A stretch of 64,000 nucleotides of DNA, taken from the NCBI RefSeq assembly GCF_056746865.1, contig NZ_CM163382.1, one strand, 5' to 3'. This document shows positions 12,001-15,000 of the stretch, in pieces (position 1 is the first letter of the stretch; each line of letters begins with the position of its first letter). A program made the position numbers.

Positions 12001-15000
12001 AGGTGTCCACACTGCCACGAGGTGAGTTAGCCAGGTAGTAACTGCCTATCGGGAATGGCATTGTGCGAATGATGTCCTCGTCATCCTCCAGCACTGCCAT
12101 TGCACCAGTGCTGTATGTGCCGAGGCTTCCGTATAACTGCGGCAGCGACTGATAGAGATTCGACTTATTGAACATATCGTTCATGCGGTTCTGCACCGCC
12201 TCAAGCCACAACTTAACAGGGCCATAATCCATCATTTCAGGATCTGGCGTAGCCAGGCGAAACCACGGACGCGCGGGGCTTGTGATGCCTGACATCATGC
12301 CGCTGGCGAGAGTGCGCGCCGCCATAGTCCCGGTCGAATCAATAATGCGTGTATTGCGTCGATCGTTACGGTTAACCTCAGAAGTCAGAAAGCGGGAACC
12401 ACGCGGGTTGATGTAATCACTCAACTCGCGCCAGTGCGGCTCGAACGACTGACGCTCGCTTTCAAGTTGTGCGAACTGTTTGTTCAATCGCTCTTTAGTT
12501 GTTTCCGCCATTTCAATGACTCCGGTTACTGACCAAGCAGCGTTTTACCGCTGGTATTAGCGGTTGATGTGTCGCCCTGAGAACCGGTAAGCAGCGTAGA
12601 ACTACGACCAGCAGCAGCGCGACGGCGACGAGTTTCTTCGTCGCGGGCATCAACAACGGCGGCATCCTGCTCCTGTGGTGCTGCCTGAACTTCTGGTGTT
12701 GCAGGCACTGATGGTGAGCTACCCATGCACATATCAATGACTCCGTACGCAATTAAATTATTACCAATTTAACCACATATGATTTATTTATCGTAGGTAG
12801 TTGACATTTAACGCACAAATTATTACCTTTCAGGTAACCAAAGAGTTCATTCCGGTTACTAACCTGACTGGCTTGTCGTTAAATTGAACAGGTGGAGTGA
12901 GCTTTTATTTTGAGCAGTACGGCGTATGGCACATGCGCCGATAGCGGTCTGGATACGTTTAAGGGGCACCCTCCCTTGCTCGGGCAAACGAACCAGGTAG
13001 CCGGAATGTGCAAGTCGAGCGGTTTTATTCCGCGCACGGGGATTCACCATCCCGGCGATTCGGTGTGACGCCTCGGAAGAGACGAGGGTACAACGATGAG
13101 AGCATTTATGGAGCCGCGACAAAGTGTGGCGCCTTAACAGGCTAAGTGCTCTCAGCGTTGTGGCATTAGCTCAGCTGGACAGAGCAACCGCCTTCTAAGC
13201 GGTTGGTCGCAGGTTCGAATCCTGCATGCCACGCCAGAATCACGCCTAAGGACCGTGATGCCAGAAGTTCCATGGGCTTGGCGGTGATGGTTTCCCTTGA
13301 AGGACTATCACCGCCCTTTTTACAGCAGGACGCCATTGCGATGGCTTCATGCTGTAAACCAGTACAGCCACGGAAGGCATAACTCATTGCTTCCAGTTCG
13401 CCCGGTTCGCCGGGCATTTTTTTAAGGTGAGATGATGAACGACCAGCAAATCGAAAAAGAAATCGTTGAGAAAGGTAAAACGGCACCTCGTGTAACTCCT
13501 GAGAAAATTGAAGGTCTCATTTGCAGTGAGCATTTTTTACTGCTGCGCAGGGGGATCATCAGGCTAAAGAAGATGACCTTATTTATAATCCAGAGCCTTA
13601 TGTCGAAGCCACCCCTGATGCTCTGCACCTTCTCACTTTCTGCGTCCTGGTGCTGCGCAACGACTTCACCGTCACCGGAGAGAGCGCCTGTGCAAGCCCG
13701 GAAAACTTTGATGCAGAAATTGGTCGGAAGATTGCCCGGCAGAATGCTGTAAACAAAATCTGGATGCTTGAAGGTTACTTGCTGAAGCAGAAGTTAAGCG
13801 GGCAATAACACCGTGACATGTCACAAACAGCCAGCCTATGAGCTGGCTTTGTTTTATCCTCACCAGAGGATATCAACGACATTATCCCCACCAGCGGATT
13901 AAGCATAGGGATCGTAATCTGTAATGGCCTTGCCTTGCTGGTTCTGCTGACCTGGAATTCGCAGACGCTTCGACACAGGGAAAGCAAACGTCAGCAATAG
14001 CGCATCGCCTTTACCCGGCGAACGCCCAAGACGCTCTTTGATATCTTCCTTCGGTTCGATAACGATTTTACCGTCCACGCGAACTTTGTACTCTGCCGCC
14101 GACAGGTCGTCCGCTGTTTCCTGGTCATCCAGCATGCCGCCCAGCCTCAGCCATGTCTTACATGAGTTGAACATCTCCCCACGCTTGTTAAGCATCTGCG
14201 GGTCAGTGGACGCACCGCCGAACGGAACAAGTTGCCATGTACGCCCCCAGCCATCACCGATTGACTTCAAACCGGTTCCGTAACCGAAGTCGATGAACAC
14301 TGCGTCAGCCTGGTACTGGTCTTCAAAGTCAGCGATACGCTTCGCCATAATCAGATCGTCAGTGGTCTTGTTGCCAGTCCACAGCACCTTACTGTGCAGC
14401 CCCTGCCGCAGGTATATCACAGCGTCATCAACGCCGGAGTATGCCGGGTCAACGCCGATTATCACCGGAGCATGTGCAACCTGCGCAGCGGTTACCACCC
14501 GTTTCATTGCCTCGTCAGTAAGACCGGTAGGGATAAACTGCAATTCAGATGCATCAGGGAATATGCCACGCACACGGATTTTAACGAAGTCGCTGTCTTC
14601 CCCGTAGTCATCAACCCATTTCTGCAACTGCTGTTTGTTAGTGCCTTCCACCGTCCGGCTGTCAATCTGCGCAGTTTTCCAGCGGTGTTTATATTTGCGG
14701 AAACATTCGCGAAAACGCCCGGTGTTACGTGTAGGGTTTCCGAACGCCACCCAAATAATCTCAGTGTCTTCGTCCGTAAGCGCACCCTCGGCAACTTCCC
14801 ACACCAGATCCGCAATGTTCGACGCTTCATCAAACACCACGATGATGCGTTTGCGCTCGTTGTGTAGTCCGGCGAATGCCTCAGTGTTGTGCTCAGACCA
14901 GGGTATTGCGTCAGCCCGCCACCGCTTGTCGTGCCCAGGGTCATTGCTGTACATCGCGGTAGCGGTACAGGTAAACCAGTCTTTCGTGATAGCAAGGTTC

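Follow-up and report, generated by a model that had tools for sequence, protein, structure and literature searches.

The stretch of DNA examined here, called the window throughout, comprises 64,000 nucleotides (nt) of an E. coli chromosome (NCBI RefSeq assembly GCF_056746865.1, contig NZ_CM163382.1) and carries a phiV10/epsilon15-like (Uetakevirus) prophage that reaches from the start of the window to approximately 30.3 kb, where its end was placed by an integrase-like open reading frame (ORF) at 29012-30262. Between the TerL gene and the gp3-like gene of this prophage, inside its minus-strand late operon, lies a self-contained transcription unit on the plus strand. It is composed, in this order, of a promoter with an operator over its -10 hexamer, a leader of approximately 80 nt, a structured RNA of approximately 240 nt, a tRNA-Arg(UCU) gene, two terminators, a slot for counter-defence genes, and a final terminator (Table 1). 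Its own promoter and terminators, set between two genes of another operon, are those of a moron, as is the variation of its content among close relatives, some of which lack the tRNA and which together have at least 19 different ORFs in the first position of the slot. An original prediction, made from the sequence alone, had described the unit as an insert carrying a tRNA; the features it listed were all present, displaced by no more than 1–2 nt, including the TTGACA promoter (with a 17-nt spacer and TACCTT as its -10 hexamer) and the terminator near 13830-13857, which consists of a hairpin plus a T-run. The GC-rich untranslated region, which the prediction passed over, is real as well: it is a conserved structured RNA and the most interesting part of the unit.

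The untranslated region at 12919-13160 forms a structured RNA with four core helices (P1, P2, P4, and P5), two likely pseudoknots (PK1 and PK2), and a long closing helix (P6). The core helices and both pseudoknots were tested together on 37 non-redundant aligned sequences against 500 shuffles. Standard pairs filled 96.5% of the cells, compared with 87.7% in the shuffles, 14 of the 29 pairs had changed on both sides in a compensatory manner, and the observed measures were reached in none of the 500 shuffles; in a control with slid 3′ partners, pairing fell to 25–48%. PK2 is backed by an exchange of C-G for A-U in 2 of the 37 sequences and in 17 of the 100 unique sequences of a larger set. PK1 is almost invariant, which is consistent with pairing and falls short of proof. 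G-U pairs were frequent (16 of 37 sequences at one P1 pair) and are possible on the plus strand only, which makes the tRNA strand the functional one. Likewise, 89.5% of the cells of P6 were paired across 31 variants, with a covariation score of 0.343 versus 0.145 after shuffling (reached in 0/500), while the cargo enclosed by this helix ranged from 30 to 99 nt. A covariance model of the core, R1, scored 144.9 bits (E = 1e-43) over the core of the window and detected a single core in every one of 100 loci, so the idea of tandem copies was dropped. Single-sequence minimum-free-energy folding, which was kept out of the evidence, recovered P1, P5, and P6 and misfolded the middle.

Table 1. Features of the plus-strand unit, its RNA helices, and neighboring prophage genes (positions within the window).
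Feature	Position	Strand	Basis or remark
Portal gene	10832-12511	-	PHROGs
gp3-like gene, 68 aa	12526-12732	-	Between the plus-strand unit and the portal gene
-35 hexamer TTGACA of the cassette promoter	12801-12806	+	Sequence reading
Predicted repressor operator ATTACCTTTCAGGTAAC	12822-12838	unstranded	1 mismatch to ATTACC-N5-GGTAAT; overlaps the -10 hexamer
Putative -10 hexamer TACCTT	12824-12829	+	Sequence reading; T1, A2, and T6 match; weak
5′ leader, ~80 nt	12839-12918	+	Comparison of loci
Structured RNA core	12919-13094	+	Covariance model R1
P1	12920-12925/12935-12940
PK1 pseudoknot (candidate)	12929-12934/13006-13011
P2	12949-12952/12993-12996
P4	13039-13042/13050-13053
PK2 pseudoknot (candidate)	13045-13048/13062-13065
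P5	13071-13075/13083-13087
P6, long closing helix	13091-13160 (13091-13104 with 13147-13160)	+	Encloses a variable cargo hairpin, 42 nt here
tRNA-Arg(UCU), CCA encoded	13160-13236	+	ARAGORN, Rfam
T1, terminator-like hairpin	13280-13321 (hairpin 13280-13315)	+	14-bp stem and CTTTTT
T2, intrinsic terminator GCCCGGTTCGCCGGGC and AT7	13400-13423 (hairpin 13400-13415)	+	~10 nt 5′ of the ribosome-binding site of the ORF
Acb4-family gene (PF13876, Gp49/Sf6 gp66), frameshifted	13435-13808	+	Alignment with intact orthologues
T3, cassette-closing terminator	13829-13858 (hairpin 13829-13848 and T-run)	+	Equivalent phiV10 site annotated as terminator
TerL gene	13899-15374	-	PHROGs
terS	15371-16045	-	ORF call and PHROGs
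Prophage repressor-like gene	22477-23061	+	PHROG transcriptional regulator/repressor families

Comparison with known RNA families returned no identity for this element. In Rfam 15, the interval 12840-13165 had no match even at E ≤ 10, and no family reached its gathering threshold at the leader RNA in the window or in eight related loci. The Pas sRNAs and STnc6030 were considered and are unrelated. No description of the leader RNA was found in the literature searched, and a preprint on P1 hfq does not discuss the trnI-ban spacer in which the RNA also occurs. Two resemblances to regulatory sites were dropped. The 3′ strand of P6 had been read as boxA/boxC; this strand is base-paired and covarying, and the boxA-like UGCUCUU sits inside P6 and is hence base-paired. 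The other, a likeness to the RfaH ops site (GGTAG) judged by eye only, mismatches at the flanking consensus positions. The leader is thus a strongly supported structured RNA that is widespread, stands at the head of early operons in several phage lineages, and appears to be undescribed.

Several observations concern modules next to the core. Just 5′ of the core, at 12880-12918, the Uetakevirus leader (also in loci L010, L005, and L008 of our comparison) contains GUCGUUAAAU..GGUGGAGUGCGCUUUCAGGUGUG, which is like the distal cargo and 3′ strand of an L009-type P6 and shows no covariation with the 5′ strand of the local P6. Judged by this similarity, it appears to be a remnant of an earlier or tandem copy. 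In the SPN1S-type loci (L011, which is SPN1S, L103, and L114), the cargo of P6 measures 94 nt and contains two hairpins resembling T-arms, GGUUCAAUUCC and GUUCGAUUC. The same cargo sits on cores of different lineages, which indicates that cargo and core are exchanged independently. In PAT1- and mEp390-type loci and at least five others, a different conserved module, AUCAGCCAUUCACGUUAAGCAUCU...GGGACUGGAAGAGUUACCACUUGGAGACGGUCC (approximately 2680-2800 in L012 and 2595-2720 in L014), takes the place of P6 after the core; it is a candidate second structured RNA and had no Rfam match at the gathering threshold in either of these two loci. Variants without a tRNA (L008, L013, L020, and others) carry GUGGUGAAUGCGCAGGCUGAUGCGC directly 3′ of P6; it resembles the acceptor 5′ strand and D-arm of a tRNA and could represent the remains of a tRNA or a processing signal that mimics one.

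The RNA is a portable module that occurs across Uetakeviruses, lambdoid prophages, and P1-like phages. A sensitive DNA search with the leader returned matches of 70–83% in unrelated phages, none of them annotated; carriers include the lambdoid phages cdtI, mEp460, and mEp390 and Shiga toxin (Stx) 2c phages, as well as P1, P7, D6, SJ46, RCS47, and phages of Klebsiella and Enterobacter. An invariant 19-mer (GGTAGCCGGAATGTGCAAG) was present in at least 120 IMG/VR contigs. The core was found in 1839 of 5426 complete E. coli genomes, about a third, and none of the 40 matches listed coincided with an annotated feature. Outside E. coli, it was confirmed only in other Enterobacteriaceae: a contig scan with a loose pattern gave, among the matches listed, mostly chance hits, with 7 of 100 model-screened loci being real and six of these coming from Enterobacteriaceae, and the taxonomic range is therefore only roughly known.

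The genomic setting of the RNA follows a few recurrent patterns. Among 133 loci, 64 had an S24 (cI-type) repressor gene in the same orientation as their upstream neighbor, and 43 had the Uetakevirus portal/gp3 pair. In P1-like phages, the RNA is part of the ban operon, which is controlled by C1; it is flanked by trnI and ban and is preceded by another rare-codon tRNA, tRNA-Ile2(CAU). In cdtI, the stop codon of cI is followed by an intrinsic terminator, a TTGACA hexamer flanked by operators that match the rightward (OR) operators, approximately 45 nt, and the core. This layout recurs with at least six operator types, the operator-flanked promoter preceding the core by 6–55 nt and the spacing from the -10 hexamer to the core being sometimes only 6–14 nt. 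It places the RNA at the 5′ end of the early-left transcript, which starts at the promoter PL, in many lambdoid prophages, where nutL or putL would be expected. The window is laid out likewise, with the core downstream of an operator-bearing promoter. Phage cdtI has no annotated N gene and bears a Q-like gene. Downstream lambdoid ORFs were assigned only to "unknown function" by PHROG and NCBIfam, apart from a deoxynucleoside monophosphate (dNMP) phosphatase. In epsilon15 (L005 2550-2637), the core is reduced to approximately its first 60 nt (34.3 bits), and the promoter/operator, T2, and an Acb4-like gene are kept, which makes this phage a natural deletion variant for probing the function of the core. 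As a separate observation, cdtI also carries matches to C4 antisense RNA (68.4 bits) and isrK (60 bits) at L006 277-465 (minus strand), approximately 2 kb away from the leader RNA; these point to an immI-type RNA system there too.

Within Uetakeviruses, phiV10/epsilon15-like prophages share this unit as a conserved accessory cassette under predicted repressor control. The original prediction had regarded TerL and the portal gene as a normally adjacent pair interrupted by the insert; instead, the unit is a conserved locus at the genus level rather than a recent insertion, and it was found in the TerL-gp3 spacer of every Uetakevirus examined (phiV10, the typing phages, epsilon15, SPN1S, Tyrion, PAT1, and Klebsiella phages). 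Over its whole 1.17 kb, it is 97–98% identical to phiV10, TL-2011b, O157 typing phages 9 and 10, and others, and 220 complete E. coli genomes contain it in full. More distant members (epsilon15, SPN1S, Tyrion, PAT1, and Klebsiella phage ST512-KPC3phi13.3) have other contents in the same spacer. The promoter/operator, the core, and T2 are constant in Uetakevirus loci; the variable parts are the cargo that separates the core from T2 (300–650 nt) and the gene downstream of T2. T2 was kept in 41 of the 43 Uetakevirus-context loci, whatever separates it from the core, and its counterpart is annotated as a terminator in the epsilon15 record. In database records, "hypothetical protein" coding sequences run antisense across the tRNA and trailer (L002, phiV10p04, 3434-3685; L001 4482-4685); these are probably spurious calls.

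The palindrome noted in the promoter by the original prediction is a genuine operator-type site. Five repressor-binding sites are annotated in the epsilon15 record, one of them in the TerL-gp3 spacer, and they yield the consensus ATTACC-N5-GGTAAT, from which the palindrome differs at one position. When the window was scanned with up to two mismatches, 15 matches were observed versus 1.65 expected, a number reached in none of 100 shuffles. Six of them fall in 20057-23196, around the repressor-like ORF, and those at 22021, 22406, 23118, and 23180 flank that gene, whose product would presumably bind the cassette operator. The overlap of operator and -10 hexamer was seen in both the window and epsilon15, in which the -35 hexamer, the 17-nt spacing, and the TACCTT hexamer are also kept. 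Expression in the lysogen, as originally suggested, is therefore the reverse of what this arrangement predicts: the repressor would keep the cassette off in the lysogen, infection or induction would turn it on, and we infer from the sequence that it is silent in the prophage state. Autonomous promoter-terminator units with variable cargo between late genes are also known from the morons of HK97/HK022 and from the phiV10/epsilon15 TerL-gp3 spacer in GenBank; unlike classic lysogenic-conversion morons, this one starts with a large conserved RNA, and its promoter bears the predicted operator of the phage repressor, which makes prophage expression improbable. Two further operator-like matches, with one mismatch each, were noted at 15966-15982 and 15984-16000 in the 5′ end of the terS ORF, a region that is ACC/GGT-rich and encodes TITTTVTITT; they may be due to chance or may be a real control site of the late operon.

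The ORF of about 125 codons that had been predicted after the tRNA was identified as a disrupted Acb4-family anti-CBASS (cyclic-oligonucleotide-based antiphage signaling system) sponge gene, judging by its orthologues. The intact orthologue has 124 codons and matched Pfam PF13876 (Phage_gp49_66) at 3e-34 over the whole model and, weakly, PDB 9E4W ("anti-CBASS 4", Acb4; E = 0.0025). PF13876 corresponds to the Acb4 family of cyclic-dinucleotide sponges (10.1101/2024.12.30.630793; 10.1101/2025.07.12.664507), and binding of 3′3′-cyclic GMP-AMP (3′3′-cGAMP) together with a block of CBASS has been reported for SPO1 Acb4 and eight homologues (10.1101/2024.12.30.630793). The length thus holds for the orthologue, but the copy in the window is split: alignment with orthologues revealed six instead of seven T residues at 13533-13538, a 1-nt deletion that shifts the frame after approximately 33 codons and leaves two ORFs, 13432-13752 and 13650-13808. 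This could reflect a pseudogene or a homopolymer sequencing error.

The position after T2 is, by homology, a hotspot of counter-defence genes, and it would be biologically sensible for such genes to be repressed in the lysogen. The slot of Klebsiella phage ST512-KPC3phi13.3 is occupied by a homologue of the anti-Thoeris protein Tad2 (E ~1e-16 to several solved Tad2 structures). A sample of 19 distinct ORFs located first, or within approximately 115 nt, after T2 in Uetakevirus loci comprised three Tad2-like ORFs, two Acb4, one Acb2/Tad1 hairpin domain, one HNH endonuclease, and others of unknown kind; Acb4 was the most abundant class. Slot proteins of this and related phages thus belong to the known Acb4 (PF13876), Tad2 (PF11195), and Acb2/Tad1 sponge families; the copy in the window differs from known Acb4 sponges by its frameshift, and ligand binding by this clade is predicted from sequence. 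The gene right after T2 is repeatedly a known immune-signal sponge, which makes the dozen or so uncharacterized small slot ORFs good candidates for new counter-defence proteins.

Taken as a whole, the unit is best explained, with a probability of roughly 0.4, as a Uetakevirus accessory cassette whose leader RNA acts in cis as a processive antiterminator or as anti-Rho protection. The cassette would fire at infection or induction; the RNA would fold on the nascent transcript and act on its own transcription complex, either by processive antitermination or by protecting the long untranslated transcript against Rho, so that RNA polymerase could read past the tRNA, T1, and T2 into the slot gene. 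The fired cassette would then supply an AGA-decoding tRNA and, where the gene is intact, a cyclic-nucleotide sponge. In lambdoid phages, the same activity would carry the polymerase through the long untranslated leader of the PL transcript to the early-left genes. Two aspects of the geometry lead to this proposal. T2 ends so close to the ribosome-binding site of the slot gene that the gene is predicted to be expressed only via read-through of T2, and the sole conserved candidate regulator is located far upstream, which favors a processive, polymerase-borne effect over an adjacent riboswitch; together with the position of the RNA in the lambdoid PL leader, this makes cis-acting processive antitermination the leading hypothesis. 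Transcription of the cassette, the 5′ and 3′ ends of the RNA, and terminator read-through are predictions of the same kind.

Several points weigh against this proposal. T2 could be a plain terminator that ends the RNA/tRNA gene, and leakage through it could account for expression of the slot gene; epsilon15 keeps T2 and the gene with most of the core lost. No strong intrinsic terminator was found within 900 nt of the core in the lambdoid loci. Loci L032 and L072 carry a boxA-like nut site 3′ of the core, so some carriers may also use N, which would render a second antiterminator redundant. A terminator-resistant polymerase leaving the cassette would run antisense into terL and terS. The promoter was unlisted in a stricter promoter scan, its -10 hexamer fitting the consensus at only 3 of 6 positions. 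Finally, the core is unrelated to the put sites of HK022: with the core model run with filters off over 20–40.7 kb of that phage, the best score on its early regions was 6.8 bits. Homology to put was consequently rejected, as the architecture differs and no similarity in sequence or structure exceeded that score.

The likeness to put is thus an analogy of position and logic only. Like putL and putR, the leader RNA occurs in lambdoids directly 3′ of a repressor-controlled early promoter, PL. Terminators are found downstream of the RNA, and at least one carrier, cdtI, has no annotated N gene; in contrast, put is approximately 70 nt long, with two stem-loops and two copies per genome, whereas the leader RNA has at least five helices plus pseudoknots and a single copy. 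The lambda N-leader with nutL is likewise a structured untranslated leader that starts the PL transcript, but the leader RNA has no internal boxA/boxB, and the nut-like site of L032 and L072 follows the core instead of replacing it. If the RNA does control read-through, it would represent a second and much more widespread N-independent solution to early antitermination in enterobacterial prophages. It is possible, though doubtful at present, that it constitutes a new class of phage regulatory RNA, either a polymerase-modifying processive antiterminator with no relation to put or a sensor, gating the counter-defence genes of Uetakeviruses and the early-left operon of many N-less lambdoids.

Among the alternatives, the model of the original prediction, a tRNA moron that relieves AGA/AGG limitation for late genes and is perhaps expressed in the lysogen, begins from a genuine gene. 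ARAGORN called a tRNA-Arg with anticodon TCT, the sole tRNA in the window, and its cloverleaf was recognized by Rfam RF00005 with 71.7 bits (E = 1e-13; gathering threshold 29). The tRNA is argU-like and matches host argU at 63 of 77 positions (82%), with compensated changes in the acceptor and anticodon stems and an identical anticodon loop, CUUCUAA. Usage of AGA and AGG, at 4.1 and 4.1 per 1000 codons in the late ORFs of the prophage and 7.4 and 4.6 in its early ORFs, is two to seven times that of the host ORFs in the window (1.9 and 0.67), and tRNA-Arg(UCU) recurs 3′ of the RNA in 32 of 133 loci, with Ile2(CAU) beside the core in the P1-like phages. The major capsid, scaffold, portal, TerL, and TerS genes, which include the most heavily expressed late genes, contain no AGA codon, the AGA codons being located in tail/injection and early genes, so codon relief for late genes is at best partial. 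Moreover, 98 of the 133 loci have the same RNA with no tRNA nearby, several Uetakeviruses (epsilon15, Tyrion, and PAT1) carry the cassette but not the tRNA, the operator over the -10 hexamer predicts repression in the lysogen, and neither the conserved RNA nor the slot for sponge genes is accounted for. Codon supplementation is thus plausible but modest and leaves the rest of the cassette unexplained; as an account of the whole, the tRNA moron seems to us rather unlikely. As first described, it is real but ordinary and largely annotated already, the tRNA-Arg and a "Gp49 family protein" being present in the records of typing phages 9/10 and RefSeq E. coli genomes. It shares with other rare-codon tRNAs of phages (argU-like genes, ileZ-argN-argO of Stx phages, trnI of P1) the nature of a tRNA-Arg(UCU) paralogue in an AGA/AGG-enriched genome, and differs in being part of a repressor-controlled cassette and joined directly to the foot of a helix of the structured RNA; its anticodon loop, the same as that of the host tRNA, has no obvious nuclease-escape changes.

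A stable trans-acting RNA, released from the early leader by, for instance, RNase III or RNase P acting at the junction of P6 and tRNA and titrating a host factor or defence sensor early in infection as a sponge or decoy, is itself unlikely and nearly as likely as cis antitermination. The first base of the tRNA is the last base of P6, which would place an RNase P site at the 3′ end of the RNA, a terminator follows the RNA region in Uetakeviruses, the RNA stands at the very start of early transcripts, the exchangeable cargo of P6 could carry specificity, and nucleotide-signal sponges fill the protein slot of the locus, which is compatible with a role in counter-defence. Precedents exist in the c4 RNA of P1 and the CI RNA of P4, both derived from leaders, in RNA anti-CRISPRs, and in pseudo-ToxI. 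Nevertheless, a search for antisense targets gave chance-level results, with no complementarity of 12 nt or more elsewhere in the window, the lambdoid copies lack a terminator of their own, no partner protein is conserved beside the RNA in the comparison of neighbors, and several loci have a ribosome-binding site and an ORF 10–20 nt after the core, as in a 5′ untranslated region. That same 5′ position, together with a compact core of approximately 165 nt with invariant junction nucleotides, two pseudoknot candidates, and the A-U for C-G exchange in PK2, would also suit a riboswitch-like aptamer that senses a host metabolite or an immune nucleotide and tunes early or counter-defence genes, particularly given neighbors from cyclic-nucleotide-binding families. 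We consider this improbable, as there is no evident expression platform adjacent to the core and mutually exclusive with it, T2 is separated from the core by 300–650 nt of variable cargo, 3′ modules are freely swapped between copies, and no Rfam riboswitch is similar. A processing or stability element, such as a ribozyme that cleaves itself or a site where RNases enter or are blocked, separating the tRNA from the mRNA and protecting the 5′ ends of early transcripts, would fit the location of the RNA at junctions of functional units (trnI/ban in P1, leader/tRNA in the window), its ribozyme-like complexity, and the RNase III site that the epsilon15 authors predicted in the TerL-gp3 spacer; with no match to a known ribozyme family in Rfam, no cleavage-site signature identified, and more sequence invariance than a simple 5′ stabilizer needs, it is quite improbable too. 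As for the region acting as DNA, in recombination or replication, or encoding a small protein, ORFs of 45–87 codons do overlap it mechanically, and the module has clearly been exchanged between phage lineages. However, hairpin lengths vary by non-multiples of three, no ORF is conserved across the variants, and the compensatory changes that maintain the helices and the toleration of G-U on the plus strand only effectively exclude both explanations.

Like the leader RNA, the c4 RNA of P1/P7, the CI RNA of P4, and IsrK come from the 5′ part of repressor- or immunity-controlled phage transcripts; they are processed by RNase P. RNAs of the c4/CI type differ from the leader RNA in being approximately 77 nt long and members of Rfam family C4, to which Rfam scans of the window and of 12400-14100 gave no match at the leader RNA. 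Whatever its mechanism, the RNA provides a sequence marker for early, repressor-controlled loci, and since no annotation covers it in the E. coli matches listed and some records contain spurious ORFs called across it, its recognition would allow their annotation to be corrected.

Two other RNA matches were recorded in the window. An Rfam match to sRNA-Xcc1 at 28200-28289 on the plus strand (64.8 bits versus a gathering threshold of 53) lies in the prophage near its integrase/excisionase end, and sroE RNA at 51736-51827 on the minus strand (116.6 bits, Rfam) identifies the right-hand part of the window as belonging to the core chromosome of E. coli.

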